Below are positions 3,921 through 36,562 of a stretch of DNA of 45,398 nucleotides, one piece after another. Position numbers and translations under genes: made by a program. The stretch is from Candidatus Woesearchaeota archaeon (lineage in GTDB: Archaea; Nanobdellota; Nanobdellia; Pacearchaeales; GW2011-AR1): NCBI GenBank assembly GCA_964391715.1, contig CAYMMZ010000001.1, positions 1 through 45,398 of the forward strand, read 5' to 3'. The number at the start of each line of letters is the position of its first letter. The first letter of the stretch is position 1. The notes beneath the pieces are model-generated. The model was not told where the DNA came from and searched no databases. It was given only the letters and a program-made list of their open reading frames with translations.

Positions 3921-3927
3921 ATTTTCG

Positions 3928-4024
3928 AAGGATGAAATTAATAAATTGGTGAACGAAGTTCACCCATCGTAAATGGTGGGAGAAATTTTGCAATAAAATT
4001 TCTTGGGAGGGAAATTTCATCCTT
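3928..4024. repeat. multi-hairpin structured repeat, copy 2 (starts 8 nt after the smc stop)
   Basis: Outer stem AAGGATGAAATT(3928-3939)/AATTTCATCCTT(4013-4024) encloses GGTGAAC-gaa-GTTCACC (3948-3964), CCAT-cgtaa-ATGG (3964-3976) and AGAAATTTT-gcaat-AAAATTTCT (3981-4003). TGGGAGGGAAA follows. Confidence 0.6.
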
Positions 4025-4061
4025 TTCTAAGATTGTGAGCTTGAAGGTTTGATCCAATCTC

Positions 4062-11515: not shown

Positions 11516-12397
11516 TTAAATTCTGCCGAAGGACCTTCCTTCCAAGAATAAACTTTTTCCTTCATAACTCCCTACCATCAGCGATAATTCCACACGGGTT
11601 ATTTCTGGATTTACTGGTACCATAACAATATCTCCCCCAGGGGAAAAAAGATATTCTCTTTGCGGGTTCATTCGATTTGGTTGAACATCATTAACGTGCT
11701 CTCTGCTCCCTACAAGCCAACAAGACTCTAATGTTTTGAGAACTTTTCTTTCTACACCTCTCATTATTTCGGGATTTATTGTTTGTCTCGAAAGATCATA
11801 TGCTTCGGGAATTCTTGTTTGATAAGAAAAATGTGCGCTAGTGACTATAGGCAATTGTTCCTCTCCCAAGGGATGTCTCAGTTCCCCATCGAATGGTTCT
11901 TTATAGGAAAACTGATAGGGTTCTTGTGATTGTTGTCTCGCGGATTTAGGAATATATCCGTCTCCAGAGAATCTTAAATTAAAGAATGTCTCCTTACTTT
12001 CCCCATCAAAAGATTCTGGTTCTCGATTAGAAATTGACCACCCAAAACTATTTAATCCTTCACGAAGTTGAACTACAGGATCAACATCTAGTCTACCTCC
12101 CCTTGCGATTTCAGAGATATTACTATATGCATCTAAAGGGCTAACAGCCACTTCACTAGGGAACCTTAACTCAAATTCATGTTCTGGAAGACCAAATCCT
12201 GAACTAATATCTCTCCCTACAAATAGCCCCCCATACATACTATTTCCTTTTTCAAGTTCCCGTGCACGATTTTCAAGAGCCCTTCTTCCAACACACCTAA
12301 TACGCCCTTGCATTTGCCCAATATCTAGGAGTACATGACTATCGTTATCATAAATTGCTTTCGCAGATTCTCCGCCTTCAACAGTAGCATCTCCCAT
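11516..12397 (-). CDS. hypothetical protein (ORFan) in the position normally taken by rps10 after tuf
   Basis: 293-aa ORF that looks soluble. No motif recognised. Confidence 0.45.
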   Translation of the reverse strand: MGDATVEGGESAKAIYDNDSHVLLDIGQMQGRIRCVGRRALENRARELEKGNSMYGGLFVGRDISSGFGLPEHEFELRFPSEVAVSPLDAYSNISEIARGGRLDVDPVVQLREGLNSFGWSISNREPESFDGESKETFFNLRFSGDGYIPKSARQQSQEPYQFSYKEPFDGELRHPLGEEQLPIVTSAHFSYQTRIPEAYDLSRQTINPEIMRGVERKVLKTLESCWLVGSREHVNDVQPNRMNPQREYLFSPGGDIVMVPVNPEITRVELSLMVGSYEGKSLFLEGRSFGRI

Positions 12398-12502
12398 CCT
12401 ATCCTCACAACTATCAGCTTTATAAAAATTTATACACTAAACTATCTAAACAAAAATTCTAACAAAAAATCATATCGCCTTAGGAACTTTAGTCCCCAAA
12501 GC

Positions 12503-12536
12503 TAAAAAATAAAAATAAAAAAGAGGCCTTATCGGC
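12503..12536 (-). terminator. hairpin plus oligo-T terminator after tuf
   Basis: In minus sense: GGCC-gataa-GGCC (12524-12536) followed by TCTTTTTTATTTTTATTTTTT. Confidence 0.55.
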
Positions 12537-12552
12537 CGTTAAAAGATAGAAA

Positions 12553-13839
12553 TTACAATTTCTTCTCAGTTAAACTCTTACAAACACCTGCTGCAACTGT
12601 AACACCCGCGTCTCGGATAGCGAATCTTGCCATGTTTGGATTCTTATCTGCAGATTCCAAAACAAGATTTCCGATCGGTTTGACCTTCACAATAGCAACA
12701 TCCCCATTCTTCAAGAAGTCTGGGTTTTCTTCAGCAACTTGTCCGCTTGCAGGGTCCAACTTAGCTTTAATTTCCACGAATTGACATGGAACTTGAGCTG
12801 TGTGAACATGGAAAACTGGTGTGTAACCTTTTGCAATTACAGTTGGGTGGTTGATAACAGCCACTTGAGCTTCAAACTCTTCAACTATTACTGCTGGTTC
12901 ACCTGCATCACAAATAACGTCTCCTCGAGCCATGTCTTTCTTACCAACGCCTCTGACGTTGATACCAACATTATCTCCAGCTTCAGCTTCTTGTAATTGT
13001 TCATGGTGAGCTTCGATACTTCGAACTTCACCTTCGATTCCAGTTCCGGATCGTCCAGGTAGTACTATGACCTTTTGGCCAATCTTCATAATACCGGTTT
13101 CAATCTTTCCTACAGGAACAGTACCAATCCCAGTGATATCATAAACATCCTGGATAGGCATTCTCATTGGTAAGCCAGTTGGTTTCTCTGGTGCAGGGAA
13201 CTTATCAATCTGTTCAAGAACAGTTGGTCCTTTGTACCACGCCATCTTGTCGGACTTGTTCGCAATGTTATCCCCCATAAGGGCAGAACCTGCAATAAAA
13301 GAGGTAGTTTCAGGATTAAATCCTGCCTGTTTAAGAACTGCAGAAACATCTTCTACTGCTTTCTTGTACTTATCCTCATTGTAATCTACAACATCCATCT
13401 TATTGATTAAAACTGCTAAGTGTTTTACACCCATAGTTCTAAGCAACCAAACGTGTTCCTTTGTTTGAGGTTGTACACCATCTTCACATCCAACAACTAA
13501 AAAGGCAGCATCTGCTTGAGAAGCACCAGTAATCATGTTTTTAACAAAATCCTTGTGTCCCGGAGCATCAATAATTGTAACTTCAAAATTCTTAGTCATA
13601 AGCTTCTTATAAGACAAGTTAATTGTAACTCCTCTTTCTCGCTCTTCTTTCAAATTATCCATTACATAAGCAAATTCAAACCCAGCTTTACCATGTTTTT
13701 CTGCTTCTTCCTTGTACTTTTTCATCTCTTGTTCAGAGACTGCGCCACCATCAAAGAAAGTTCTACCTACTGCAGTACTTTTTCCTTGGTCAACGTGTCC
13801 AACGAAGACAACATTCATTCCTGGTTTTTCTTTAGCCAT
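12553..13839 (-). CDS. tuf: translation elongation factor aEF-1 alpha
   Basis: [17 protein letters not shown] and NKMD GTPase motifs in a full-length 428-aa protein. Confidence 0.97.
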
Positions 13840-14047
13840 TTTTTCTAATTTTTTAATTTAGTTAATATAACCCAGAGCATAACGCTCAAAGAGTAAATAT
13901 ATTGTGTAATATTGGTTTTTAAAGTTTGTGCAAGCAAATTTTAAACAGGAGGATTTGAAGTAACCAGCTTTTTAATGTATTCAGTTAACTCTCCAAATCC
14001 TCCTTTCATTAAACCAACACATTTAAATATACTATATTATAAATAAT

Positions 14048-14083
14048 ATTAAGATTATTAGAACTATTAAGACTATTAAGATT
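14048..14083 (+). repeat. 4 x 9-bp tandem repeat (ATTAAGATT ATTAGAACT ATTAAGACT ATTAAGATT), candidate operator
   Basis: Read directly from the sequence. Ends 14 nt before the ATG of the RHH micro-gene. Confidence 0.6.
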
Positions 14084-14097
14084 ATAAATAATATAAA

Positions 14098-14244
14098 ATG
14101 GCAAAAAAGGGAATCAGTATAACTATAGAAGATAGAATTCTCAGAAAGTGGAAAGAATATACTGAAAAAGAATGCATCAATTCTTCAAAATTAATTGAAA
14201 AATTAATTGAAGAACATCTAAAAAAGAGGAGAGAAAATGTTTAA
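14098..14244 (+). CDS. 48-aa ribbon-helix-helix (CopG/MetJ-like) DNA-binding protein
   Basis: MAKKGISITIEDRILRKWKEYTEKECINSSKLIEKLIEEHLKKRRENV shows the beta-strand / helix / helix pattern of RHH proteins. Too short for the ORF track. Confidence 0.45.
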   Translation: MAKKGISITIEDRILRKWKEYTEKECINSSKLIEKLIEEHLKKRRENV

Positions 14245-14415
14245 TAAAAATATAAAGAAAAAGATAAAAAAGAAAGGAATCTCTATTAAATATTCTCATG
14301 TAAAATCTATAAAAGACATAGTCATAATAGACGAAAAAATATCTGATAAAATAGAATAAGGTTTCTCCCATTTTCCAATCCCCTTACACCAAAATCTCCC
14401 AAGCCTTTAGTCAGC

Positions 14416-14520
14416 AAATTTCTTTTTTTATCAGATAAGTTTTGCAGGAAACATTTTCGCCACGTACTTGAGTACGCAAGAAAATTTTTACAAAAAAATT
14501 AGCGATAAAAAAAGAAATTT
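14416..14520. repeat. stop-codon-abutting nested-hairpin repeat, copy A (after fusA)
   Basis: Perfect 17-bp outer arms AAATTTCTTTTTTTATC (14416-14432) / GATAAAAAAAGAAATTT (14504-14520). Core GTTTTGCAGG..ATTTTC-gcCACGTACttgaGTACGcaa-GAAAAT. The right end overlaps the fusA stop codon (14519-14521) by 2 nt. Confidence 0.7.
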
Positions 14521-16690
14521 ATTGGTTCTCGGCTAGTCCTTTCCTATCCCTAATCTGACGAATAACCTTAACCTGCAAATCGTTCGGCAATTTCTTAAAA
14601 GTCTGACTAACCAATGAGGAAACTCCTCTCCCTTCTGTCGCACTTCGAAGGTCTGAAGTCCAACCAATCATTTCTTGAACGGGAATCTCGGCATTAATTG
14701 TAACCCCACTCTCTTCTTGAGCAACATCTACTAGATTACCCCTCTTGGTAGAAACAAGTGAAGTTGCAGCCCCCATAAATTCTGTCGGAGCTTCAATTTG
14801 ATGAACTTGAACAGGCTCAAAAATTGTAGGGGTTGCTTTTGCAAAGGCCCCTCTAACTGCTTCCCTAATTGCTGGATAGACTTGTGCTGGACCTCTATGA
14901 ATCGCATCCTCATGTAATTTCAAATCAACCAAAGAAACTTTCAATTTGAGGCATGGTTCTCTAGCCAACGGACCAGCCTTCATAACTTCTTCAAAAGAAT
15001 CCAAAACAAGCTCAATTACTTCTCCAATATGAACTTCACCTTTGGTCTTATCCAAAAAAACATTCCCTTGGAAAATATCTCTATACTGCTGTGCCTCATC
15101 TCGAGAGATTCCAAGGCCAACAAGAGTTTCATCAAGTGCCTTATCTTTCTTCTTAATTCTTCCCTTTGGTAAAGTTCCGTCACTAATAGCTTCAACAATA
15201 GCATCTTCTAAAGGTTCCACTGTTAAAAAGAAGCTATTATGTTTATTAGGGCTTCTCCCTTCTGCTGCATCACTTTGCTTAACAACAGATTCTCTAAAAA
15301 CTACAATTGGAGCTCCAGATTCTACATCCAATCCTTTCTCAGTCTTAATCCTATTCTCAATAATTTCTAAATGGAGCTCTCCCATTCCAGAAAGCAAAGA
15401 TTCTCCGGTCTCTTCATTAATTTCAATTCTAAGTGAAGGATCCTCCTTTCCAATCTGTCTTAAAATTTCAACAAGTTTGGGCAAATCTGCAGTTCTCTTT
15501 GCAGAAATAGATTTTGTAACAACCGGTTCAAACAAATGGCTAATCGCTTCAAATGGTTCAATTGGATTTGTGGAAACAGTCTCACCAACAACAACATCCC
15601 GGAGACCAACGATACCAACAATATTTCCAGCCACTACTTCATCTAACTGAACTCTCTGAGCCCCTTTGTAAATAGAAACTTGTTGTGCCCTAACCTTTTT
15701 ATTAGCAATATTCAAATGCAACTCATCTCCTTGTTTAATCTTTCCTCCAAAAAGTCTCCCTGCAGCAACTTCTCCAGCATGAGGGTCAACCACAATCTTT
15801 ATAGGAACAAATGCTACTTCACCATCAATATTACAAGATTGAAAATCTTTTCCAGCAGTACTATCCAAATCTCCATGCCAAATTTTTGGAATCCTATATT
15901 TCTGAGCAACAACAGGGTCAGGATGATTATTAACTACCATATTCAAAATAACTTCGTGTATCGGTGCCTTTTTCGCAAGAACCTTGTAATTTTCTCCACC
16001 TTCCCCATAAGCATCAATTATTTCTTTAAACGAAATTCCATTCTTCTGCATGTAAGGAATAGACAATGCCCAATTATGGAATGCTGAGCCAAATGCAACT
16101 GAACCGTCCGCCACAGATACTTGAAACTTCTCCTTAAATTCAGGTTCAGCAATTTTTGCAATAAGAGCATTAACGTCATTGATTATCCCAATAAATCTTT
16201 TCTGCATCTCTTCAGGCGTCAACTTTACTTCCCTAATTAGTCTATCCACCTTATTAATAAAAAGAATCGGCTTAACTCTCTCTTTAAGTGCTTGTCTAAG
16301 AACAGTCTCAGTTTGTGGCATAATCCCTTCACTAGCACATGTAAGAACAATCGCACCGTCCACTGCCCTCATAGCTCTTGTAACATCTCCACCAAAATCA
16401 ACATGACCGGGGGTATCAATTAAATTAATCAGATAGTCTTGTTCTTCGACTGTATGAACCATAGAAACAGAAGCAGAATCAATTGTAATTCCTCGCTCAG
16501 CCTCATCCTCGTGAAAGTCAAGTGTTCTTGCTTTTCCTGCAAGGTCTTCACTCATCATTCCAGCACCAGCAAGTAAATTATCCGAAAAAGTGGTCTTCCC
16601 ATGATCAATATGTGCACAAATCGCAATATTTCGAATGTGTGTGGGGTCTCTCTGTAACTCTTTCACTCTTTCAGTCATATCAATTGCCAT
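14519..16690 (-). CDS. fusA: translation elongation factor aEF-2
   Basis: AHIDHGKTT, DTPGHVDF and NKVDR motifs, plus the diphthamide-region HEDAIHRGPAQ. 723 aa. Confidence 0.97.
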   Translation of the reverse strand: MAIDMTERVKELQRDPTHIRNIAICAHIDHGKTTFSDNLLAGAGMMSEDLAGKARTLDFHEDEAERGITIDSASVSMVHTVEEQDYLINLIDTPGHVDFGGDVTRAMRAVDGAIVLTCASEGIMPQTETVLRQALKERVKPILFINKVDRLIREVKLTPEEMQKRFIGIINDVNALIAKIAEPEFKEKFQVSVADGSVAFGSAFHNWALSIPYMQKNGISFKEIIDAYGEGGENYKVLAKKAPIHEVILNMVVNNHPDPVVAQKYRIPKIWHGDLDSTAGKDFQSCNIDGEVAFVPIKIVVDPHAGEVAAGRLFGGKIKQGDELHLNIANKKVRAQQVSIYKGAQRVQLDEVVAGNIVGIVGLRDVVVGETVSTNPIEPFEAISHLFEPVVTKSISAKRTADLPKLVEILRQIGKEDPSLRIEINEETGESLLSGMGELHLEIIENRIKTEKGLDVESGAPIVVFRESVVKQSDAAEGRSPNKHNSFFLTVEPLEDAIVEAISDGTLPKGRIKKKDKALDETLVGLGISRDEAQQYRDIFQGNVFLDKTKGEVHIGEVIELVLDSFEEVMKAGPLAREPCLKLKVSLVDLKLHEDAIHRGPAQVYPAIREAVRGAFAKATPTIFEPVQVHQIEAPTEFMGAATSLVSTKRGNLVDVAQEESGVTINAEIPVQEMIGWTSDLRSATEGRGVSSLVSQTFKKLPNDLQVKVIRQIRDRKGLAENQ

Positions 16691-17860: not shown

Positions 17861-17970
17861 AAACTAATTTTACATTTTTGGTAGGACAGTTCGCAGAGAA
17901 TAAATTTCTGTAGCGTACTAGTGTACGTAAAGAAATTTTTACCAAGAAATTGCTATTAAAAACTAATTTT
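17861..17970. repeat. stop-codon-abutting nested-hairpin repeat, copy B (after rps7)
   Basis: Core GTTCGCAGAG-AATAAATTTCT-gtaGCGTACtagtGTACGTaa-AGAAATTTTTAC-CAAGAAATTGC. Arms TTTTTGGTAG (17875-17884) / CTATTAAAAA (17953-17962), with G-T pairs on the plus strand. Bracketed by an 11-nt direct repeat AAACTAATTTT (17861-17871 and 17960-17970). Confidence 0.65.
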
Positions 17971-18566
17971 TATCGAGCGGAGTCGGCTTGTTTCTCTGCA
18001 TCATTCTTCTTAGAAATTGCATGACTCTCACTTGACCCCTCACTTGCCGCCATTATTTCCTTAGCCAAAGATTCAACAATCGTCGCCTTTTTATTGAAAG
18101 CCTTATCATAAGCCCCATTAATAATATACCTAAGAACCAAATTCAATCTCCGCCTAGGGCTAACATCTACTGCTTGTGGATATTTCGCACCACCATATTC
18201 AATAGAAGTCACTTCATCTCGTGGAGCACCATTCTCAATTGCCTTAGCAAAAACCTTCAGAGGATTCTCTCCTGTCTTCTCTTCAATAATCTTAAACACA
18301 TCAATTACAATTTTAGTACATCGAGCCTGCTTCCCTGTAATCCATCCGGTAATAATCCTATGCTTCTTCCCACGACTTCCAGGAACCTGCAATAAATTAA
18401 TCAATCTCTCAACAACATTAACTTTTGACCTAGTAGGGTCCCACTTAATCCGACCATGACTCTTCAGCATCAACTTAGGATTCAAATTCACAACCTTCTT
18501 CAATCCAGGGTCTTCAATCCGAACCTCTGAAGCATCAAACATACCGAATACTTTCATCTGAACCAT
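17970..18566 (-). CDS. rps7: 30S ribosomal protein S7 (uS7)
   Basis: 198 aa in the expected position after S12. The terminal part EIMAASEGSSESHAISKKNDAEKQADSAR is typical of the archaeal uS7 C-terminus. Confidence 0.93.
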   Translation of the reverse strand: MVQMKVFGMFDASEVRIEDPGLKKVVNLNPKLMLKSHGRIKWDPTRSKVNVVERLINLLQVPGSRGKKHRIITGWITGKQARCTKIVIDVFKIIEEKTGENPLKVFAKAIENGAPRDEVTSIEYGGAKYPQAVDVSPRRRLNLVLRYIINGAYDKAFNKKATIVESLAKEIMAASEGSSESHAISKKNDAEKQADSAR

Positions 18567-18988: not shown

Positions 18989-19100
18989 GTTTCAGTATAA
19001 ATTATGTGAAGTTTTGATTTATAAAGTTATTGTACCTTTAATCTCTTACCTCCCTCAAAGAACTAAATCTTTTCAAAAGCCTCTACCATGCTTCACAAGT

Positions 19101-19200
19101 AATTAATTTTTAGTAAGTAAGTTCGCAGTGTAAAAATTTTCGTCGCGTATTTAAGTACGCAAGAAAATTTTTACCAAGAAATTGCTACTAAAAATTAATT
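19101..19200. repeat. stop-codon-abutting nested-hairpin repeat, copy C (after nusA)
   Basis: Perfect 15-bp outer arms AATTAATTTTTAGTA (19101-19115) / TACTAAAAATTAATT (19186-19200). Middle stem GTAAAAATTTTC/GAAAATTTTTAC. Apical stem GCGTA-tttaag-TACGC. The right end overlaps the nusA stop (19199-19201) by 2 nt. Confidence 0.7.
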
Positions 19201-19624
19201 ACGCAATCCTAAACTTCGCAATCCTAAAGTAATTCTTCAAAACATCTGAGAGTTCTTTCTCTCGAATACGGTTTCTACCTATCAAAGCCGCCTTATTTTG
19301 ACGACCAGCAGTAAGAGTCATAGAATTCCCATTCAATTCAACCTTAGTAAACTCAACAGGGTCAACAACATCTGCAACAAACTTTGAAATCCCTTCATTA
19401 CTATCTATGGAAGGCATCGCGATAACCTTAATATTCTTTCGAAGAATCTCTCTTAATTTTTTAACATTAATAGCTCCTTTCCCAATCGCCTTAGAAACTT
19501 TCACTTTTGGAACCGCAAAAATAATTTGATTATTATAAACAAAACAATTCTTAGTTGGAACGCCAGAAACTCGAGAGAATAAATTAATATACCTCATCAA
19601 CTGCATGTCAATAGTTCCGGCCAT
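19199..19624 (-). CDS. nusA: archaeal NusA-like KH-domain transcription factor
   Basis: MAGTIDMQLMRYINLFSRVSGVPTKNC...AIGKGAINVKKLREIL shows two KH-like modules. Start placed at the ATG directly after the rpl30e stop; the ORF track extends it to 19651. Confidence 0.85.
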   Translation of the reverse strand: MAGTIDMQLMRYINLFSRVSGVPTKNCFVYNNQIIFAVPKVKVSKAIGKGAINVKKLREILRKNIKVIAMPSIDSNEGISKFVADVVDPVEFTKVELNGNSMTLTAGRQNKAALIGRNRIREKELSDVLKNYFRIAKFRIA

Positions 19625-19625
19625 A

Positions 19626-19904
19626 TTATTTTGCCCTCTTTGTGGGTACACCTTGGTGCGTCAAAGAAAAAACTTCGCTCTCAAAATCAAGATTTAATTC
19701 CTTAGAAAGTTCTGCCTTAGGTTTCAAAACAACAAACTCAATATTTGCAGACTCAAGCCTTTCAACGGTTTCATCTCGTGCATCTTTAGCAATAAAAACT
19801 CCTGATAATTTTTTAGCATTCTTTATAGACTGGCGAATTCCAAATAAAACGCTTCCTTTCTCCATAGCATCCCTAATTTCTTTTAAACTCATGTTATTAA
19901 TCAA
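19626..19904 (-). CDS. rpl30e: 50S ribosomal protein L30e (L7Ae/L30e family)
   Basis: GSVLFGIRQSIKNAKKLSGVFIAKDARDETVERLE fits the L30e pattern, and the position between rpoA and nusA is conserved. Confidence 0.8.
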   Translation of the reverse strand: MINNMSLKEIRDAMEKGSVLFGIRQSIKNAKKLSGVFIAKDARDETVERLESANIEFVVLKPKAELSKELNLDFESEVFSLTHQGVPTKRAK

Positions 19905-19922: not shown

Positions 19923-22900
19923 TTAACCTTTCTTTTTTTCCTTTGGTTTTTCGGCCAATGAACCGGTAACTCTAACCAAAAGCCCTGGAAGTCCAGTTCC
20001 AACAGGCACAGGTTGATTTAAGATTATATTCTCAATTACAGAAGCTAACTTATCTTTCTTCCCAGTCTTAGTAGCTTGAACAAAGTGTTTATCAGGAGTC
20101 TCAAAACTTGCCCTCGCTAAAATAGAACTTTTGTCAGAGATAATACCCATTCTCGTAATTCCCTTAACTGCACCAGAGCTAGTCATAGTGTCTGCAATAA
20201 GCATTGAGTGCTTAATATCTACATTAAGACCTTGAGAAACAATAACTTTCTGAATTTCATTAATAATAACTCGTCTTGCAACTTCTATTCCCAAAACATT
20301 TGAAACTTCATGAATATCATTGGTAACAGTTTTGTCTGCATCAACTCCTTTAAATGCTAATAGATCTTTCAAGTTAGACCCAGCAGTCAAAATTACATAA
20401 TCTTTACCCCTCTTAACAATCAAAACTTGTGAAATCTTTTTAATTCCTGTCAATATAACTTCTTTTAATTTTTCTTTAGTCTTATAAATCTCTTTAAAAT
20501 CTTCATTAGCCATATCTAAAATCATTCCATCACTTAACTTCTTAACTGCAAATCCTTTATCTTTCAAAACTTCCACTACTTTTTCAAGGGTGATATGTGC
20601 ACTACGAAGAGCTTTTGAATCAATACCAACCTTAATTTTCTTTGAACCAAAATCAATAGCAATCTCCGTTACAATTTCCTTTAACTTAACTTCCTTTATC
20701 TTCTCCGCAATTAACTTTGCTTTTGATTCATTATTGTGATTCTTATCTAAATAAATCTCCATAGCTGGAGTTTTTGGAAGTTTTCTAGCATCCAAAATTT
20801 CTATAATTCTCGGAAGTCCTTGGGTAACTTGCACTTCTGCAACACCTGCAGCGTGGAAAACATTCAAGACCATCTGTGTAGAAGATTCTCCAAAAGATTG
20901 AGCAGTAACAACTCCTATAGCTTCTCCAGGAGAAACTAATTGATTTTTATGAGCTTCTGAAATATCAATTCCATCAAGACCATATTTAAACTGAATAATA
21001 TTATTAGAAGCATCTCTTACAGTCTTATCATAAGCCATAACTAAATCTTGTAGAGCATTAGCCAATCTTCTATACAAATAACCAGATTTTGGAGTCCTAA
21101 GGGCTGTATCCATCAGTCCATCCCTACCAGTCATAGAACCAAAGAAAAATTCATCTGGTCTAAGCCCCTCAATAAAAGAACTATAGATAAATCCTCCAGC
21201 TCGAGGACCCAAATCTCCTTTCTTGAAAGAAGATAAAGTTCTTCCAGTGTATCCAAAATCAATTCTCCGACCATTCAATGCCTGTTGACCAACAGAACAA
21301 GCAATCTGGGTAATATTCAATAAACTCCCTCCAGCCCCACTACTAATCATTTTATTCGCCAAATTCTCCTTAGGAAACCCTTTCTTAACAACATCTCCAA
21401 TTTCTGTTCGAGTCTCATTCAAAACTTGCAACACCTTAATCTCTCGAGTCTCTTCAGCAGTCTTACCCGGTAAAAGTTCCATATTCTTATTATAATAACT
21501 CTCAATTACTTCCTGAGTTTTAATCTCTGCAGAATCAATAATCTTTTTGGTCTTTTCTTTAACTTCTACGGGAACATCTAAATCTCCAATAGACAATGTA
21601 AATCCAGTTCTTGATAAAAATGTAGTTCCCAAAGAAAATACTCGTCCAAGCAAATTCATAGTCTCACCTCTCCCAATCTCTTTATCTGCAATTCTCAAAA
21701 CTTCTCCCTTCTCACTCTTAAAACCTTTATAATCAATATTCTTATCTGAAATTTTCTTAGGAACAATCTTTGAAAAAACGTCCCCTCCAGAATTTGTCTT
21801 ATTAAACCCTGAAAAATCCACTCCAGATTCGTGCAATAATTGTGCAGAATCTTCTTTTGTAAGTTCTCCTTCATTCAACATAAAGTTTCCGCTAACTGCA
21901 TCCTTAACACAACCCATTAGATTCATATTATTCTTTGGGGAAAATAAATTTGAATTAACATCTAAAAGTACCTCTGCCTCAGCCCTCGCCTCTTCAGTCT
22001 GTGGTGCATGAATATTCATCTCATCTCCATCAAAATCTGCATTGTAAGGGTTACAAACAGCGGGGTGAACCCTAAAGGTTTTTCCAGGAAGAACTTTCAC
22101 AAAATGTGCCATTAAAGAGGCTCTATGTAATGAAGGGTGTCGATTGAAAAGCACAACATCTCCATCAACTAAATGTCTCTCAACAATATACCCTGGTTCA
22201 ATTTCTTCTACTAAATCCTCTCTCAGTTCTTCAGTAATCCTCTTCCTCTTCCCGTCAGGTCTCAAAATATAATTTGCTGCAGGATATTCTTCAGATTTAA
22301 TTAATTCCTTCATCCGATTCATATTAGTACTCGTAACCCTCTCCGCAACAGTAAGAATTTTTGCAACTCTTGAAGGAATTCCAACTTCATTCAATTTCAA
22401 ATTTGGATCTGGAGAAATAACTGTTCGAGCCGAGAAATTAACCCTCTTACCAGCCAAGTTCTTTCTAATCCTTCCCTCTTTTCCTTTAATTCTTTCAGTA
22501 ATTGTTTTTAATGGCTGACCACTCCTATGTCTCGCTGGAGGAATTTTTGCAATAGAGTTATCAAAAAATGTAGTAATATGGTATTGCAATAAATCCCATA
22601 AATCTTCAATAATCACTTCAGGTGCACCTGCATTCAAATTCTCCCAAAGTCTCTGATTAGATCGAATAATATCTGACAACTTATGTGTTAAATCATCTTC
22701 AGACCTCTCACCAGATTCTAAAGTAATTGAAGGTCTAACTGTAACTGAAGGGACTAACATAGAGGTCAAAATGCTCCACTCAGGTCTTAAAGTATTCGCA
22801 TTAATCCCAAGAATCTTCAAATCTTCATCAGTTATTTTCACAAGCCTCTCTCTAATCTCTGAAGGAAATAATCTTCTTCTACCACTTCTAAAGGTTGTTG

Positions 22901-23339
22901 GCTTCTCTAACTTAACTTTTTCCTGAATAATACTACAGTGAGGACATTTCTTTCCATCCTTAGCTTTCTTAATTCTATCAATCAAAGGTTTCTCTAAATC
23001 TTTATCTTCTTTAATCAAAACTTTTCCACAAGCCTCACAAGTAGACCTTAGAACTAAATCAATAATAGGGAGATACTTTATGTGAATCACAGGTCTTGCC
23101 AATTCAATCAATCCTGGATGGCCCAAACATTCCTTCAATCTCCCTCCACAAGTCCTACATCTAACACCTGGGTCAATTGCTCCAAGTCTCAAATCCATTA
23201 ACCCTCCATCAACAGGATACCCATCAACATCATAAAGCTCTGGAGTTACAATCTTAGCAACAGAAAGCTTCTTTATCTGCTCAGGACTAAGTAAATGAAA
23301 ACTCATTCCGCTGATTTGTTTCTTTACTGGTCTATTCAT
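19923..23339 (-). CDS. rpoA: DNA-directed RNA polymerase largest subunit, A' and A'' parts in one uninterrupted ORF
   Basis: N-terminal Zn motifs CRTCGG..C..H. Catalytic YNADFDGDEMN. Bridge-helix region GRDGLMDTALRTPKSGYLYRRL. This runs without a stop into the A''-type trigger-loop region SPGEAIGVVTAQSFGESSTQMVLNVFHAAG. 1138 aa. Confidence 0.95.
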   Translation of the reverse strand: MNRPVKKQISGMSFHLLSPEQIKKLSVAKIVTPELYDVDGYPVDGGLMDLRLGAIDPGVRCRTCGGRLKECLGHPGLIELARPVIHIKYLPIIDLVLRSTCEACGKVLIKEDKDLEKPLIDRIKKAKDGKKCPHCSIIQEKVKLEKPTTFRSGRRRLFPSEIRERLVKITDEDLKILGINANTLRPEWSILTSMLVPSVTVRPSITLESGERSEDDLTHKLSDIIRSNQRLWENLNAGAPEVIIEDLWDLLQYHITTFFDNSIAKIPPARHRSGQPLKTITERIKGKEGRIRKNLAGKRVNFSARTVISPDPNLKLNEVGIPSRVAKILTVAERVTSTNMNRMKELIKSEEYPAANYILRPDGKRKRITEELREDLVEEIEPGYIVERHLVDGDVVLFNRHPSLHRASLMAHFVKVLPGKTFRVHPAVCNPYNADFDGDEMNIHAPQTEEARAEAEVLLDVNSNLFSPKNNMNLMGCVKDAVSGNFMLNEGELTKEDSAQLLHESGVDFSGFNKTNSGGDVFSKIVPKKISDKNIDYKGFKSEKGEVLRIADKEIGRGETMNLLGRVFSLGTTFLSRTGFTLSIGDLDVPVEVKEKTKKIIDSAEIKTQEVIESYYNKNMELLPGKTAEETREIKVLQVLNETRTEIGDVVKKGFPKENLANKMISSGAGGSLLNITQIACSVGQQALNGRRIDFGYTGRTLSSFKKGDLGPRAGGFIYSSFIEGLRPDEFFFGSMTGRDGLMDTALRTPKSGYLYRRLANALQDLVMAYDKTVRDASNNIIQFKYGLDGIDISEAHKNQLVSPGEAIGVVTAQSFGESSTQMVLNVFHAAGVAEVQVTQGLPRIIEILDARKLPKTPAMEIYLDKNHNNESKAKLIAEKIKEVKLKEIVTEIAIDFGSKKIKVGIDSKALRSAHITLEKVVEVLKDKGFAVKKLSDGMILDMANEDFKEIYKTKEKLKEVILTGIKKISQVLIVKRGKDYVILTAGSNLKDLLAFKGVDADKTVTNDIHEVSNVLGIEVARRVIINEIQKVIVSQGLNVDIKHSMLIADTMTSSGAVKGITRMGIISDKSSILARASFETPDKHFVQATKTGKKDKLASVIENIILNQPVPVGTGLPGLLVRVTGSLAEKPKEKKKG

Positions 23340-23340
23340 T

Positions 23341-26300
23341 TTATTCGTATTTATTCTTCATCTCAAATTTAGTCATTAAATGTAATCCTTGTAATTCTTC
23401 AACCAATAATTTGAAGGCATACGAAACTTCAACAGGCTCTACTTGGTTTGAATGGCATAAGCTACAAACCTTCTTGTTATGGATTTGATCGTCAATCACA
23501 GTGCTTCCACATTTTGAACAAAGATGAATCACGACCTTATCAGAATCATATCTCTCTTTCAATAAAAGAGAAGCTCCATGACCAACAAGTGCTTCTTGTT
23601 CCATCTCTCCAAGTCGAAGAGCCCCACCACGAGCCCTACCTTCAATTGGTTGCCGTGTAAGAAGTGCAATCTTCCCAGAAGCTCTGGCATGAAGAGCATT
23701 TGCTACCATATATTTCAACTTCAAATAAAACATATTTCCAACAAAAATCTTCACAGGCATTCTCTTTCCAGTGATCCCATTATACATTACTTCCTTTCCG
23801 TCTTCTCTAAATCCAAGTTTCTTCAAACCACTCTCGAGGCTATCGATTGATTCTCCAGAAAATGGGGAGGCATCTACAATCTTCCCAGAAAGAGCCGCAA
23901 CTTTTCCAGCAAGAACGTCCATCAAATAACCAACAGTCATACGAGAAGGAATACCATGAGGGTTGAATAAGATATCTGGCCGAACACCCTTACTTGTAAA
24001 TGGAATATCATTTTCAGGTGCAATAAACCCTACAACACCTTTCTGACCATGAGGTACTGAAAACTTATCTCCGATTTCAGGAATTCTAAGTTCTCTCATT
24101 CTGATTTGAACTATCTTATTACCTTCTTTGTCTTGTGTAACAAAAACAGCATCAACAGTTCCTTTTTCTCCTTGCCTAATCGCAGAAGAATTTTCTTTCT
24201 TTGTCTGAATAGAAATCTCTCTTGCTTCACTCAAGAATTTTGGAGGACTTGTCTTTCCGATAACTACTTCTCCTTCATTCATCTCAGCCTCAGGATAAAC
24301 AACTCCATCATCCTCTAAATATCTATAACTCTCCTCAGTCCTATACCCTGAAACATCTTTATCTGGAACGATAATCTCATCCCTAAGACCTCCAGAGTAG
24401 TTCAATTCTATCGAAGTGTATGGCCTAAATCTAGAGCTTCTTCCAAGACCCCTATCAATAGAACCACCATTTAGAACCGTAGCATCTTCCATATTATATC
24501 CTTCATAAGGCATAACTGCCAAAACAACATTTTGTCCAACAGGGTGAACATCTAGAGTATCATAAATAAAACTTCGAACCAAAGGTTTTTGAGGATAATG
24601 CAATAGGGAAACATCAGTATCGATTCTAACTGGAAAGTTCCCTGCATAAATTCCAAGTCCTTGCTTGTACGCCTTAGAACCACCTTTAACAAGACGTGCA
24701 GGAGGTCCATGGTTTCCAAAAGGCGTCAAGGAAACACTAACTCCAAGACAATCAATCTTGTCTACTTCCAGGTGAGTATGTTCTTCCGTCAATTCCTTTT
24801 CATCTAAACAAATATAACAATCATCTTCTTCCGCAGCATCAAGATACTCAAGAATTCCTTCCTTCACAAGGTCGTCCCAAGAAAGTTTTCCTTCACTAAC
24901 ATTCTTTAGATGCTCTTCATTCAAAAGAGGTTTCCCTCCAGAAACAACAATCAAAGGCCTAATTACTCTACCTATCTCTGAACTCAAAAAAATCGTATCC
25001 AAAAATTTATCGAATCTCACAGACATCTCATAAGGCAATCTCCCTCCCCTTCTAGCACCCTTAACACTTTTTACAAATTCTTCTGCCTCCTTAACAACTC
25101 CAATAAATCTGCCATTATAGAAAATATCAAATTCGCCTTCTTTATCCCCCATTCCAGCTTCTTCTAAAACAGATAAGACACTCTTATGTTCAATTGAAGC
25201 CCTTGTAGAAATTTTTGCAAGAAGGGCCAAGTTCTTTCTAAGACCAATTTCAGTTCCTTCCGGAGTCTCGATTGGACAAAATCTTCCATAATGTGTTGGG
25301 TGAACTGTCCTCGCCGCAAAATTCTCTTGCTCTCCAGGAAGAGTAGATGTAACTCTTTGTAACTGAGACATTATAGAAAAAGAATTATTCTTATCCATAT
25401 TTTGAGTAACTCCTTTTCGCTCACCTATCCAAGAACCTGTAGCAATTGCACTCTCCATTCGGTGAGTAAACAAAGTAGATTTCGCAAGAGTCTTTATAGA
25501 ATAAAATTTCCTTCTCTTAACAGTTTTCTGTAAAGAATGTTGGACCTCTCGAAGAAGAATATTCATATTTACCCTAAATAAATCCGATAGCAAATCTCCA
25601 GAAAGTCTAACTCTTTTATTAGCATAATGATCTTTATCTGTCATAGAAGTTTTAGGATTTTCTCTGGCAACATAATATTGCTTAATAAACTTACAAAGTG
25701 TTCTCGCCTTCTCCAATCGAGAGGCTTTATCAAGACCGATATGTGGAAGAAAATATGAATCAATTCTTTGTTTAACTCTATCAAGCATTTCTTTATTTGT
25801 TCCTTGCAAGGCACTTTTCTCAGCGATCCACATTAAAGCATCATTAGTATTTGCGATATCCGCGAACTCATAAAAATTAACAATTAGACTATCTGTTTGT
25901 TTTTCAATTAATTGAGAAATTTCTGCGTCACTCGTAAGTCCAAGGGCTTTCAAAAGAACAATCGCAGGAATATCTCTAAATCTTGAAAAAGAAATTTCTA
26001 AAATTCCTTGAGGATTCTCTACGACAGAAACAGGAATTTTATAAGCACCCCTCTGAGAAAATAATCTAAGCATAAGTCTCGCCTTAGTCTTTTGAAATTC
26101 TATAAATGTCTGATTAGAAGCTAAGTCTTCAGCCATCACCATAACCCTCTCATTACCGTTAATCAAAAAATATCCTCCTTGATCTTTTGGGTCAATATAA
26201 TTTTTAACCAGCTCTTCTTCATCCATTCCATAAATATTACAAAACTTACTCTTCACCATAACAGGAATTCTTCCTAATTGAACTTTTTCAGTCTCTACTT

Positions 26301-26598
26301 GTCCAGCATAATTAATAGTCATCTCCATCCAAATAGGGGCAGAATAGGTCAGATTCCTAAGTCTAGCTTCTGCAGGAGTAATAGGTCTTGAGGAACCATC
26401 AGACTCTACAATATTTGGTTTTCCAACAACCACATTCCCTAGATTAATTTCAAAGTCTTCATCAGGAATATTCTCAGAAAGCTCTGTTACAATTTCTTGC
26501 ATCCGCTCCTCAATAAAATTATTAAATGAAATGATATTAGACTCAACAAGGGAATGATTTTTCAAAAACTCTTTTACCAATATATGCTCTTCCATCAA
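23341..26598 (-). CDS. rpoB: DNA-directed RNA polymerase subunit B (unsplit)
   Basis: 1085 aa with GEMEQEALVGHGAS, GQKGVVG and the C-terminal Zn ribbon CSKCGS...CSLC. Confidence 0.97.
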   Translation of the reverse strand: MMEEHILVKEFLKNHSLVESNIISFNNFIEERMQEIVTELSENIPDEDFEINLGNVVVGKPNIVESDGSSRPITPAEARLRNLTYSAPIWMEMTINYAGQVETEKVQLGRIPVMVKSKFCNIYGMDEEELVKNYIDPKDQGGYFLINGNERVMVMAEDLASNQTFIEFQKTKARLMLRLFSQRGAYKIPVSVVENPQGILEISFSRFRDIPAIVLLKALGLTSDAEISQLIEKQTDSLIVNFYEFADIANTNDALMWIAEKSALQGTNKEMLDRVKQRIDSYFLPHIGLDKASRLEKARTLCKFIKQYYVARENPKTSMTDKDHYANKRVRLSGDLLSDLFRVNMNILLREVQHSLQKTVKRRKFYSIKTLAKSTLFTHRMESAIATGSWIGERKGVTQNMDKNNSFSIMSQLQRVTSTLPGEQENFAARTVHPTHYGRFCPIETPEGTEIGLRKNLALLAKISTRASIEHKSVLSVLEEAGMGDKEGEFDIFYNGRFIGVVKEAEEFVKSVKGARRGGRLPYEMSVRFDKFLDTIFLSSEIGRVIRPLIVVSGGKPLLNEEHLKNVSEGKLSWDDLVKEGILEYLDAAEEDDCYICLDEKELTEEHTHLEVDKIDCLGVSVSLTPFGNHGPPARLVKGGSKAYKQGLGIYAGNFPVRIDTDVSLLHYPQKPLVRSFIYDTLDVHPVGQNVVLAVMPYEGYNMEDATVLNGGSIDRGLGRSSRFRPYTSIELNYSGGLRDEIIVPDKDVSGYRTEESYRYLEDDGVVYPEAEMNEGEVVIGKTSPPKFLSEAREISIQTKKENSSAIRQGEKGTVDAVFVTQDKEGNKIVQIRMRELRIPEIGDKFSVPHGQKGVVGFIAPENDIPFTSKGVRPDILFNPHGIPSRMTVGYLMDVLAGKVAALSGKIVDASPFSGESIDSLESGLKKLGFREDGKEVMYNGITGKRMPVKIFVGNMFYLKLKYMVANALHARASGKIALLTRQPIEGRARGGALRLGEMEQEALVGHGASLLLKERYDSDKVVIHLCSKCGSTVIDDQIHNKKVCSLCHSNQVEPVEVSYAFKLLVEELQGLHLMTKFEMKNKYE

Positions 26599-27121: not shown

Positions 27122-28318
27122 TTAATTCTCTGGATTATAAAATCCTGTGCTAGCATCAAACTTCTCAAAATTTTTATGCATTTGACTTTCCTGGATACTA
27201 TTAACGCCGTAATAACTACTTCCCCTCTCCTTTCCATAAGGAACCTCACAAGCCTCTTGTAATTCCTCGAACGCAATCTGTGCAATCTTCATCCCTGGAT
27301 AAAGCTTGATAGGCAAGGGGCTGGCATTAAATAACTCTAATGTTAACTGCAGGGAATTACCAGGGTCCAAAAACCCCGCAGTAGTATGGATAATCAGACC
27401 AAGCCTAGCAAGAGAGCTCTTTCCCTCAAGCCGACCAACATGCTTATTATCTACACCCGTAACTTCTTTTATTAAACCCAAGGCAAAAGCCCCCGGGTGC
27501 AAAACAAAACAATCTCTACCTCCCAAATCGACATCTTCCATCAAATCCTTCACAGGATCCTTCGTATCGATAACCTCCGTCCTATGCGGTCTAAAAATCT
27601 TAAACTGATTATCTAAATGCAAATCATAACTCGCAGGCTGAACACATTTCTCCTCATAAGGAATTATCTTGAGTTCCCCTGTCTTAACTCTCTTCTTTAT
27701 CTGACAATCCGCTAAAATCCCTGCAGAAAATTTCCTAACATGCTTCTCAATCCCAGGACCCCTTTTTCCAAGAAATGCAGAAACCTTTTCATGCAACTCT
27801 TCAATAGTCCAATCATTCTTAAATAAATGGTCAGAAATTTCAATACACTTTCCAAGGTTTTGTTTTGATGGGTCTGGATTCGACATCTCTCTTTGCTCTT
27901 GCCCCAAAAATTCTTCAAAAGAAATTTTATCTCCTTCTCCTGCCCTCTCAACAATCCTAGAATACCTTGTCTCAGGATCAGCATCAACAGCAAATAAAAT
28001 AAATTCTCCCTTACCCTTCAAAGCCTCAACCTCCCCCATAGTCCTCAAACTCTCAATCACCACATCTCCCCCATCTGCACCAGCCTTTTTATATAATTCT
28101 TCAACAATATAATTAGAACCATTTTTCTCCCTCAAATCATTAGCAATAAAGATCATACCACTCCTATCTACAGCCATCCCTCGACGTTTCAACTCTTCAA
28201 TCAAATAATCTCTCACTGAATAATGTTTAAATCCTTTCTCACACAAAAATTTGACAATCGTCCCCTTCCCTGAACCATTAGTTCCTGTAATTCCAATAAT
28301 CATCAAAAAATAATCCAA
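27122..28318 (-). CDS. dcd: fusion protein: N-terminal P-loop nucleotide kinase (UPF0200/dNMP-kinase-like) plus C-terminal dCTP deaminase
   Basis: N-terminus IIGITGTNGSGKGT (P-loop; the likely true start is MIIGITG at 28303). From about aa 198: ILADCQIKKRV..GELKIIPY...QPASYDLHL...GKSSLARLGLIIH...ELFN, typical of Dcd. One uninterrupted 398-aa ORF. Confidence 0.85.
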   Translation of the reverse strand: MDYFLMIIGITGTNGSGKGTIVKFLCEKGFKHYSVRDYLIEELKRRGMAVDRSGMIFIANDLREKNGSNYIVEELYKKAGADGGDVVIESLRTMGEVEALKGKGEFILFAVDADPETRYSRIVERAGEGDKISFEEFLGQEQREMSNPDPSKQNLGKCIEISDHLFKNDWTIEELHEKVSAFLGKRGPGIEKHVRKFSAGILADCQIKKRVKTGELKIIPYEEKCVQPASYDLHLDNQFKIFRPHRTEVIDTKDPVKDLMEDVDLGGRDCFVLHPGAFALGLIKEVTGVDNKHVGRLEGKSSLARLGLIIHTTAGFLDPGNSLQLTLELFNASPLPIKLYPGMKIAQIAFEELQEACEVPYGKERGSSYYGVNSIQESQMHKNFEKFDASTGFYNPEN

Positions 28319-28360
28319 CCATTATTTAAATAAATTATCGTGCTCAAACAACTAAAAGAG

Positions 28361-28465
28361 AATTTTAATTTTCATTAGGAAAGTTCGCAGTGTAAAAATT
28401 TTCGCCGTGTGCTTTCTCACATAAGAAAATATTTTACCAAGAAATTACCGCTGAAAATTAAAATT
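28361..28465. repeat. stop-codon-abutting nested-hairpin repeat, copy D (after dut)
   Basis: Perfect 14-bp outer arms AATTTTAATTTTCA (28361-28374) / TGAAAATTAAAATT (28452-28465). Core GTTCGCAGTG-TAAAAATTTTC-gccGTGTGctttctCACATaa-GAAAATATTTTAC-CAAGAAATTAC. The right end overlaps the dut stop (28464-28466) by 2 nt. Confidence 0.7.
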
Positions 28466-28898
28466 AACGACCAGTACTTCCAAATCCACCCTCTCCCCTT
28501 GTCGTCTCTTCTAATTCGCTAACTTCTCTAACCTCTCCCCTCTCAATTTTTTGCAACAAAATCTGTGCCAACTTGTCTCCTTTCCTCACTTCAAAATCAT
28601 CCTCAGTAGTATTATATAAGACTACTTTATACTCTCCACGATACCCGGCATCTATAACCCCTCCAAGAACCGTTACCCCTTTCTTAGAAGCTAACCCACT
28701 TTTATCCCAAACGAGGGCAACATAACCTTCAGGAAAGGCCATAGAAATCCCTGTTGAAAAAGTATGCCTCATATTAGGACCTAAAACAAAATTCTCATCA
28801 GAATAAATATCCATCCCTGCATCTCCCGCGTGCGCATACGACGGCAAAACCGCACTCTCTCTTAATCTTTTTACTTTTACTTCTACCATTTTTAACAC
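28464..28898 (-). CDS. dut: dUTP diphosphatase (trimeric dUTPase)
   Basis: AGDAGMDIYS, GVIDAGYRGE and RGEGGFGSTGR motifs. Confidence 0.93.
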   Translation of the reverse strand: MLKMVEVKVKRLRESAVLPSYAHAGDAGMDIYSDENFVLGPNMRHTFSTGISMAFPEGYVALVWDKSGLASKKGVTVLGGVIDAGYRGEYKVVLYNTTEDDFEVRKGDKLAQILLQKIERGEVREVSELEETTRGEGGFGSTGR

Positions 28899-35998: not shown

Positions 35999-36028
35999 TT
36001 ATTCTTCCTCCTTTCAATCAAGTATTAT

Positions 36029-36045
36029 GTTAACACCTGTTAACA
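36029..36045. promoter_or_regulatory. operator-like GTTAACA-CCT-GTTAACA between the TATA box and the doxX start
   Basis: GTTAACA at 36029 and 36039 (10-bp phasing), with a third copy at 36073. A minus-strand TTTATAAA box lies at about 36050-36057, immediately upstream. Confidence 0.55.
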
Positions 36046-36146
36046 ATTCTTTATAAATATTTGTAAAACAGAGTTAACATTCAAAATTATTATTTCCTAA
36101 TAATTCTAAATTTTTTAAGTATTCCCATTATCAACTTCTTCTAGCC

Positions 36147-36536: not shown

Positions 36537-36545
36537 CTGTTAACA
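36529..36545. promoter_or_regulatory. operator-like GTTAACA-TCT-GTTAACA overlapping the regulator's own start
   Basis: The same 17-mer architecture as 36029-36045. A minus-strand TATA box ATTTATATA lies directly upstream. Confidence 0.55.
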
Positions 36546-36562
36546 TATATAAATCTTTAGAA

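Follow-up and report, generated by a model that had tools for sequence, protein, structure and literature searches.

The window analyzed here, i.e. the whole stretch of 45,398 nucleotides (nt) of contig CAYMMZ010000001.1 from a Candidatus Woesearchaeota archaeon, has a G+C content of ~36% and carries the gene order rpoH-rpoB-rpoA (unsplit)-L30e-NusA / S12-S7 / EF-2 / EF-1α. Our analysis revealed that it harbours four copies, named A to D, of a structured repeat that folds into one long hairpin and abuts the ends of genes. These copies belong to an undescribed family of ~110-base structured repeats of Pacearchaeota/Woesearchaeota-type DPANN archaea; our search of the literature did not find any description of such an element. 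Among the roughly 45 gene ends of the window, ~4 carry the element, namely those of the genes encoding EF-2 (copy A), ribosomal protein S7 (copy B), NusA-KH (copy C) and dUTPase (copy D).

An initial annotation, made from the letters alone, had located these four copies, and their positions are borne out by the sequence and by the scores of the covariance model R1 (115.5 bits for copy C, 107.6 for D, 87.4 for A and 80.8 for B). A degenerate pattern of the core matches exactly these four sites in the window, with 0 matches expected from shuffled sequences, and no fifth copy was found in the window, scores of model R1 elsewhere on the same strand being at most 21 bits. The mean column identity in the alignment of the four copies is 73%, and the z-scores of their + strand folds relative to shuffles are -5.1 (A), -2.9 (B), -8.3 (C) and -4.6 (D). 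As annotated initially, the right arm of copies A, C and D overlaps by 2 nt the TTA serving as stop codon to the neighbouring - strand gene (the open reading frames, or ORFs, end at 14519, 19199 and 28464), the outer arms of these three copies are perfect inverted repeats (17, 17 and 14 bp, respectively), and the direct repeat flanking copy B reaches the first T of the S7 stop codon. Copy B has a short, degenerate outer helix (TTTGGTAG/CTATTAAA) that includes two G.T pairs. The site of copy A is convergent, small + strand ORFs finishing at 14359, and the TATA-like box of the next gene lies ~25-40 nt leftward of copy D (28321-28340).

The family comprises at least 59 distinct copies of the type found in the window (type 1), identified in metagenomes and metagenome-assembled genomes (MAGs), together with a sister type 2. 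When species-representative genomes were scanned with a loose pattern, six real loci were found among the matches listed, most matches being bacterial and due to chance, and a stricter pattern retrieved 61 loci from metagenomes, three of them false. True copies of the element occur in MAGs of Woesearchaeota, Pacearchaeota or unclassified archaea; among S7 and EF-1α sequences, the closest ones carry the labels Candidatus Pacearchaeota, Nanoarchaeota or 'archaeon', and marine metagenomes contain contigs identical or near-identical to the window. The record ENA ERZ27249630 k141_787132 (L001) has the same four copies as the window. A thaumarchaeal host, to which the unsplit RpoA and the low G+C content might have pointed, was rejected on account of these affiliations of the element and of the EF-1α/S7 relatives. 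No match to the type-1 pattern or to copy C was found in viral contigs, phage records or plasmid records. The only Rfam match of the window at gathering score is a tRNA-Lys; at a relaxed threshold, type 1 gives weak chance matches to plant miRNA hairpins and type 2 gives none.

The 59 type-1 copies, aligned over 118 nt (alignment A3), show that each copy is an unbranched hairpin of ~105-118 nt made of four helices: (i) P1, which has 15 pairs in the family model, the arms of individual copies being inverted repeats of 14-18 bp, and which is preceded on its 5′ side by an unpaired AAC, (ii) P2, which has 7 pairs with single-base bulges and is separated from P3 by a conserved asymmetric internal loop (GCAGY opposite CAA), (iii) P3, which has 12 pairs with an A-rich 5′ side and a U-rich 3′ side, and (iv) P4, which follows a small loop and has 6 pairs (GYGUAC/GUACRY) capped by a variable apical loop. 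Bulges at G31 and A98 are also conserved. The P3-P4 module of type 1 is composed of an A-tract, a G+C-containing hairpin and a U5-6 tract and can be read in both directions; a generic terminator scan called none of the four copies of the window. The outer arms had initially been described as different in each copy. This holds inside the window; across the 59 copies, the arms have a common consensus (AACAATTTTGATTTATAGCAG ... CGCTAGAAATTAAAATTA) and therefore belong to the element, as helix P1, and not to the flanking target sequence.

Pairing is maintained in 94.2% of the cells of the type-1 alignment, and both sides have changed in 25 of the 40 pairs. The covariation score reaches 0.368, compared to 0.04-0.10 when the partners are slid by 1-3 columns, and 0 of 500 shuffles reach 0.368. 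Several known motifs were sought by eye on the consensus and rejected: a kink-turn (no tandem G.A beside a C-stem), a bulge-helix-bulge (loops opposite and not staggered), an H/ACA guide (loops conserved, ACA box absent and lower stem too long), and also C/D boxes, hammerhead, hairpin and twister cores and the sarcin-ricin loop.

Type 2 was discovered by searching the collected loci with model R1. It has the P1 arms and the apical GCGTAC hairpin in common with type 1 but differs in its middle, which consists of AGACGAGGCG, a G+C-rich helix and then CAACGAAGTATAAA, with two sub-forms, and it lacks the U-tract after the hairpin. Its conserved unpaired nucleotides are AGACGAGGCG/CAACGAAGUAU, and 27 of its 37 pairs are compensatory, on 10 sequences only. 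Type-2 copies occupy the same kinds of sites as type-1 copies, including those after S7 and EF-2.

Table 1. Coordinates of the copies, of their helices and of associated features. Positions are those of the window unless they are preceded by the handle (L) of another collected locus.
Feature	Position	Strand	Remarks
Copy A (type 1, most divergent)	14416..14520	+	after EF-2 (ORF 14519..16690, - strand)
Copy A, P1 arms	14416-14432 with 14504-14520		17 bp, perfect
Copy B (type 1)	17872..17959	+	after ribosomal protein S7 (17970..18566, - strand)
Copy B, left direct repeat	17861..17871		11 nt, AAACTAATTTT; candidate target-site duplication
Copy B, right direct repeat	17960..17970		AAACTAATTTT; last T is the first base of the S7 stop TTA
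Copy C (type 1, best model match)	19099..19202	+	after NusA-KH (19199..19651, - strand)
Copy C, P1	19099-19115 with 19186-19202		17 bp, perfect
Copy C, P2	19117-19124 with 19178-19185
Copy C, conserved loop	19125-19129 opposite 19175-19177		GCAGT opposite CAA
Copy C, P3	19130-19141 with 19163-19174
Copy C, P4	19145-19150 with 19155-19160		apical loop 19151-19154
Copy D (type 1)	28361..28465	+	after dUTPase (28464..28898, - strand)
Copy D, P1 arms	28361-28374 with 28452-28465		14 bp, perfect
B′ interior (P3-P4) at site B	L004:6076-6193, L005, L006		versus window 17861-17979, L001, L003; B′ resembles copy D
Type-2 copies	L145:3942-4058, 13172-13288; L132:1580-1696; L144:7876-7992, 11977-12094; L139:6421-6537; L186:7727-7843; L182:30-146; L187:10587-10703; L188:14672-14788
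Native EF-1α end	window 12477-12545; L187:14689-14720		also in L200 and L210 after EF-1α

The G-T pairs of the window copies had been noticed to sit so that only a + strand RNA, antisense to the flanking genes, would keep them as G-U. This bias extends to the whole family: in the orientation GCAG...CCAAGAAATT, the 59 type-1 copies have 107 G.U versus 28 A.C pairs, the latter being those that would read as G.U on the opposite strand, the pair at columns 55-76 is G.U in 42 of the 59 copies, and type 2 has the same bias (32 versus 13). Furthermore, 49 of the 59 copies are more stable in the + orientation (mean of -33.8 versus -29.7 kcal/mol; Wilcoxon p = 1.3e-7). The strand that folds better is the one antisense to the abutting gene. 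A mutational bias was rejected as the cause of the G.T excess, since the GC skew of the window (C-to-T on the gene-sense strand) would predict the opposite; therefore, the strand asymmetry has probably been selected. Considered together, the strand-specific fold and the conserved asymmetric loops suggest that the single-stranded antisense strand, as RNA or as single-stranded DNA (ssDNA), is recognized.

The association with stop codons seen initially in the window is also found in the wider family, which bears the compensatory changes reported above: a convergent ORF stops inside the right arm in 54 of the 59 type-1 copies. These ORFs, which mostly have 100-860 codons, end 17/18 nt (29 copies), 11/12 nt (13 copies) or 4/5 nt (seven copies) after the 3′ box. 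The three registers correspond to the triplets TTA, TTA and CTA of the consensus right arm, i.e. TAA, TAA and TAG on the gene strand, where the arm reads TAATTTT(G/A)ATTTCTAGCG and supplies the stop codon or merges with it. In the main class, the helix has a fixed end located two bases inside the stop codon; the arm of the other two classes also takes in the last two or four sense codons, as exemplified by the ...SDF* end of orthologous HerA-like genes in L040 and L163. The element abuts a wide variety of core genes, such as those encoding S7, EF-2, EF-1α, NusA, RpoA, dUTPase, GyrA, RadA, RtcB, GINS, RPA, PheRS-beta, GatB/E, a DnaG-like protein, rubrerythrin and OapC.

Five of the 59 copies have no convergent ORF: three are located at contig ends, the one of L152 is without explanation and the last one abuts a 16S rRNA gene. 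This type-1 copy (L183:3269-3387) is located in a 16S-tRNA-23S spacer, between the 16S and the tRNA, where it begins exactly at the mature 3′ end of the 16S rRNA (...CCTCCT), and its neighbours are all on the - strand (16S 3379-4111, tRNA 3037-3107 and 23S 864-2852). This case indicates that the rule is about gene ends and not about stop codons. Moreover, since this copy lies inside an rRNA operon, the element is no efficient terminator on the gene strand there. The 23S match of this locus covers only ~2 kb of sequence, the length of the model being ~3 kb.

Filtering of 25 candidates by ORF length and distance left about 17 of the 59 copies in which a gene of the same strand also ends at or in the left arm; these copies are located between two convergent genes. 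The remaining copies face the leaderless promoter of the next gene, 21-35 nt off. No copy in sense orientation between tandem genes was found, which suggests that the orientation is tied to the abutting gene and not to the direction of replication. A replication-strand cause was accordingly rejected, there being essentially no such exceptions and the folded strand apparently not being the one expected on the lagging-strand template of co-oriented genes.

Many copies have TATA-like motifs some 21-35 nt upstream of P1. Taken with the strand-specific covariation and with the conserved unpaired nucleotides of type 1 (GCAGY/CAA) and type 2 (AGACGAGGCG/CAACGAAGUAU), they could mean that every copy represents a separate gene for a small non-coding RNA of the + strand, which would act in trans or in cis and be bound by a protein at the conserved internal loop. 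We consider this very unlikely. The distance between the TATA-like motif and P1 varies by ~15-20 nt, which led us to reject a dedicated promoter at a set distance, and the boxes sit as leaderless promoters of the neighbouring genes. Convergent contexts leave no room for a promoter, and there is no terminator after P1. Furthermore, a trans-acting RNA would have no reason to overlap stop codons in three fixed registers, and the insertion polymorphism and target duplication described hereafter do not fit with such a gene.

Presence/absence polymorphism at orthologous loci, for which the initial annotation had suggested a comparison of related genomes, was observed at the EF-1α, NusA and EF-2 sites and in two further pairs of loci (L126/L171 and L186/L155). 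The S7 proteins encoded by L187 and L188 are identical, and so are the S7-EF-2-EF-1α regions of both loci. After EF-1α, L187 reads ...GAAACTTTAA|GGTCTAAAAGACC followed by a T-run and is devoid of the element; in L188, a type-2 element (60 bits) lies between TTTAA and GGTC and has AAACTTTAA on both flanks, i.e. a target duplication of 9 nt in which the stop codon is comprised. With the native TTTAA, the consensus arm of this copy becomes complete, and this TTTAA pairs with the distal arm. The empty site, ...AAACTTTAA|GGTCnnnnnGACC plus a T-run, is found in L187 and also in L200 and L210, two additional element-free EF-1α populations that were used as outgroups. Since these outgroups share the empty arrangement, the insertion of L188 is derived. 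At the native end of EF-1α, this clade has a small G+C hairpin, GGTCnnnnnGACC (GGCCGATAAGGCC in the window), and then long T-runs, an arrangement that looks like a bacterial intrinsic terminator; in L188, this small-hairpin terminator is still present just downstream of the new insertion. A second hairpin (CCTTCGGGG... / CCTTTGGGGCGGAAACGTCC...) is found after the native one in L187, L200 and L210.

The other sites give a similarly patchy picture. The NusA-S12 spacer, 211 nt long with copy C in the window, is element-free and has 35 and 58 nt in L187 and L189, respectively; the S12 promoter is recognisably kept in filled and empty spacers and accounts for part of the 75 nt located left of copy C. 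An element is present at the EF-2 site in the window, L145, L159, L139 and L182 and absent from it in the L187-L199, L200 and L210 populations. Depending on the lineage, type 1, type 2 or no element is found at the S7 site. The copies of L126 and L186, one of each type, lie at sites that are empty in their relatives L171 and L155. Just outside the distal arm, these two loci (L126:1348-1385 and L186:7700-7726) share a GCCGTGRGGCT...TTTTGTAA segment made of a small hairpin and a T-run, which could either belong to a longer mobile unit or be a terminator that was captured; this conserved extension past the distal arm (GCCGTGRGGCT) was found in L126 and L186 only.

The second reading given by the initial annotation is a dedicated terminator or insulator structure. 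In the form considered here, the element would be a host-selected punctuation, possibly a domesticated repeat, that blocks antisense transcription entering the abutting gene from the bidirectional promoter of the next gene or from a convergent gene, and that maybe terminates the gene itself, its mobility being secondary or historical. The strand that folds is exactly the RNA of transcription heading into the abutting gene, the type-1 P3-P4 module resembles a bidirectional intrinsic terminator, and the copies are placed between a stop and the next TATA box (21-35 nt) or between two convergent stops. Moreover, the element is kept after highly expressed core genes in streamlined genomes, and orthologous copies retain covariation. 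However, type 2 has no U-tract after its hairpin, and P1 and P2 cannot help termination at an internal U-tract. In addition, many lineages are devoid of the element at the same gene ends, which have their own small hairpin and T-run, the new insertion of L188 stands upstream of a native terminator, one copy lies within the 16S-tRNA-23S operon, the better fold is antisense to the gene, and, as said above, very few gene ends of the window bear a copy. As the primary nature of the element, punctuation is therefore not supported, and we regard a host-selected insulator as rather unlikely. A punctuation role as insulator or terminator may have been acquired secondarily, the mobile element being perhaps co-opted.

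The interior of resident copies can also change. Among strains with identical S7, site B shows two interiors, B and B′, which differ at ~17 of 45 positions, with at most one base difference in the flanks over 300 nt. The exchange is bounded by the conserved GCAG and TTTTTACC boxes. Such different interiors within near-identical flanks point to a recent gene conversion or replacement at site B. The exchange between conserved boxes could also be expected from a structure-specific ssDNA recombination site, similar to attC or to the targets of REP-associated tyrosine transposases (RAYTs; REP, repetitive extragenic palindrome), serving a tyrosine or HUH recombinase. Both the bottom-strand preference and the location at gene ends would then be accounted for: the element is, like attC sites (57-141 nt), an imperfect palindrome that starts at or within the stop codon and folds on the antisense strand with unpaired bases. 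Furthermore, Nanoarchaeota have been reported to contain integrons and attC arrays (PMC9668308). However, the RYYYAAC/GTTRRRY pair is absent from the base of the helix, where only the unpaired AAC 5′ of P1 is found, and the centre is conserved and the ends variable, the reverse of attC. The hosts are essential core genes and rRNA and not arrays of short cassettes, no integrase was found nearby among the proteins of the window, and the de novo copy shows a 9-nt duplication, which neither attC nor REP/IS200-type insertion makes. Such a recombination site, although attractive as an analogy, is to our mind very unlikely.

Overall, we consider it somewhat probable that the element is a non-autonomous structured palindromic repeat, i.e. 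a mobile element similar to MITEs (miniature inverted-repeat transposable elements) or REPs and specific to Pacearchaeota/Woesearchaeota-type DPANN archaea. This mobile element is favoured by the derived insertion with its duplication, the patchy occupancy of sites, the native terminator beside the new insertion and the copy in the rRNA operon. The MITE-like element put forward initially is thus upheld as far as polymorphism, duplications and location at stops are concerned; the element is, however, no ordinary MITE, since most copies show no detectable duplication, the fold is strand-specific, the orientation is locked to the abutting gene and no transposase was found in the sequences searched.

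Several observations weigh against a mobile element. First, border repeats across 58 type-1 copies are no longer than in a swapped-partner control, copy B with its variant B′ being the sole type-1 locus whose direct repeat clearly exceeds this control. Besides the duplication seen initially at copy B (11 nt), there is that of L188 (9 nt), but most copies have no detectable one, and the generality of a 9-11-nt duplication therefore rests on these two. Second, the proteins of the window, which are otherwise all housekeeping ones, include neither a transposase nor a reverse transcriptase, an HUH nuclease, an integrase or a RAYT-like protein that we could find; likewise, in ~500 kb of related loci, no arm pair was seen to enclose a longer unit, as would be expected of an autonomous partner with matching terminal repeats, the search space being so small that this is weak negative evidence. 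Third, copies inside one genome are ~70-85% identical, with no recent burst visible, and several sites appear to be inherited vertically, the copies of the EF-1α site being each other's nearest neighbours. Orthologous copies keep their structure, and with vertical inheritance a host-selected element fits equally well. The maintenance of 110-nt inserts in very streamlined genomes also argues for some benefit. Lastly, no known cut-and-paste mechanism accounts for such a strict orientation.

For the mobile element that we favour, the intermediate, targeting rule, enzyme and effect on transcription that we infer would be as follows. Mobilization would proceed via a single-stranded intermediate of the antisense strand, RNA or ssDNA, whose fold would be recognized by an enzyme. 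The target would be chosen by similarity or complementarity between the A/T-rich terminal arm and a T-rich ...TAA gene end, which would explain the fixed orientation. To judge from the single case of L188, a new copy would enter directly after the ...TTTAA stop and duplicate 9 nt, leaving the native hairpin and T-run downstream. In compact genomes, the few bases between a stop and the next promoter would be almost the only tolerated sites; a stop codon can be just a few bases from the next TATA box there. This scarcity of tolerated sites would lead to the same ones (after S7, EF-2, EF-1α and NusA) being hit or retained repeatedly. Once resident, copies would swap their interiors through gene conversion. 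As a by-product, the element may form a strong two-way barrier between transcription units, which would not be its raison d'être.

A different route, that of an RNA-mediated archaeal retroelement similar to short interspersed nuclear elements (SINEs), appears distinctly improbable. In this scenario, a + strand RNA would be produced from the bidirectional promoter of the neighbouring gene, a reverse transcriptase would recognize its conserved loops, and target-primed synthesis would take place, the A/U-rich 3′ arm (...AAAAUUA) pairing with a nicked T-rich ...TTTAA gene end. SINE-like retroposition would explain the homing to TAA, the antisense orientation, the blurred boundary between element and stop codon and the variable duplications of 9-11 nt. 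The strand-specific fold, the A/U-rich 3′ arm facing ...TTTAA and the 9- and 11-nt duplications are compatible with it. To our knowledge, no target-primed retroposition of a non-intron element has been described in archaea; if true, it would be categorically new.

DPANN archaea are among the organisms with the most streamlined genomes known, and we are aware of almost no description of their repeats and non-coding elements. A structured repeat that is kept after essential genes, fused with their stops, folded specifically on one strand and strictly oriented would be either a new style of mobile element that targets gene ends through an RNA or ssDNA intermediate, or a recruited insulator. It also has practical consequences. 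Since several contigs end within or near a copy, the element probably breaks metagenome assemblies, and it can displace annotated stop codons and C-termini. The covariance model can be used as a lineage marker and as an annotation aid.

Other features of the window deserve mention. RpoA (1138 aa) and RpoB (1085 aa) are encoded by single unsplit genes (19923-23339 and 23341-26598), and likewise in L187 and L189. Between EF-1α and EF-2, the segment 13840-14415 of a 680-nt gap contains a 14-bp stem (AGGAGGATTTGAAG/CTCCAAATCCTCCT, 13947-14004), a 28-nt A/T quasi-palindrome (14033-14095) and two small + strand ORFs (14098-14244 and 14237-14359), the first of which looks like a small DNA-binding or antitoxin-like protein. 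A gene located at 27122-28318 encodes a fusion whose N-terminal domain is AAA_17/AAA_18 kinase-like and whose C-terminal domain is dCTP deaminase-like; it belongs to a compact block of dNTP metabolism, beside genes of dUTPase, ribonucleotide reductase, an NrdR-like repressor, DHFR and ThyX. Lastly, repeated TGTTAACA palindromes (36027-36080 and 36524-36559) lie in two intergenic regions, upstream of a 129-aa ORF and of RFC-like genes, and may be operator sites.

Among known systems, the element was compared to intrinsic terminators, integron attC sites, REP-type palindromes and MITE-like repeats. It resembles bidirectional intrinsic terminators by the type-1 P3-P4 module located right after the stop codon, but differs from them by its extra conserved helices and loops, the lack of a U-tract in type 2, the coexistence with native terminators, the copy in the rRNA operon and its absence from orthologous gene ends of relatives. 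With attC sites, it shares a similar length, an imperfect palindrome that begins at the stop of the upstream ORF, a bottom-strand fold with unpaired bases and an outer helix conserved more in structure than in sequence. This is a resemblance only: the R″/R′ boxes (RYYYAAC, GTTRRRY) are absent, the base of the helix being AATTTT/AAAATT with no complementary GTT, the centre is conserved, there are no cassette arrays, the element follows core genes and its insertion duplicates the target.

REP/RAYT systems and palindromes derived from IS200/IS605 are recognized as single-stranded hairpins, and insertion of the IS200/IS605 type leaves no duplication. Like REPs, bacterial interspersed mosaic elements and the palindrome-associated elements of the IS200/IS605 family, the element is an extragenic and strand-specific palindrome found at gene 3′ ends. 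However, it is a single ~110-nt hairpin without GTAG or CGTC tag, and neither RAYT nor TnpA was seen in the window. By comparison, REPs measure 20-40 nt and bear a GTAG or CGTC tag (PMC3733652).

The closest in kind are the bacterial repeats of the ERIC/Correia/RUP type and archaeal MITEs. Like these repeats, the element is a non-coding, multi-copy unit of ~100-130 nt with inverted-repeat ends, the whole of which forms one long hairpin; it is located at or over gene ends and can donate stops, and it shows polymorphism between strains and a short duplication in recent copies. Small palindromic repeats comparable to it include ERIC/IRU, Correia (CREE), RUP, RPE and the bacterial and archaeal MITEs; in the DPANN clade of its hosts, we know of no described element of this kind. 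Unlike in these repeats, the terminal arms vary between copies of one genome and yet stay complementary, G.U pairs are restricted to one strand, the orientation is locked to the abutting gene, most copies are devoid of duplication and no cognate transposase was found in the sequences searched. The family differs from its MITE/ERIC-type kin by three traits: a strand-specific fold, a locked antisense orientation and a fusion with stop codons in three registers.

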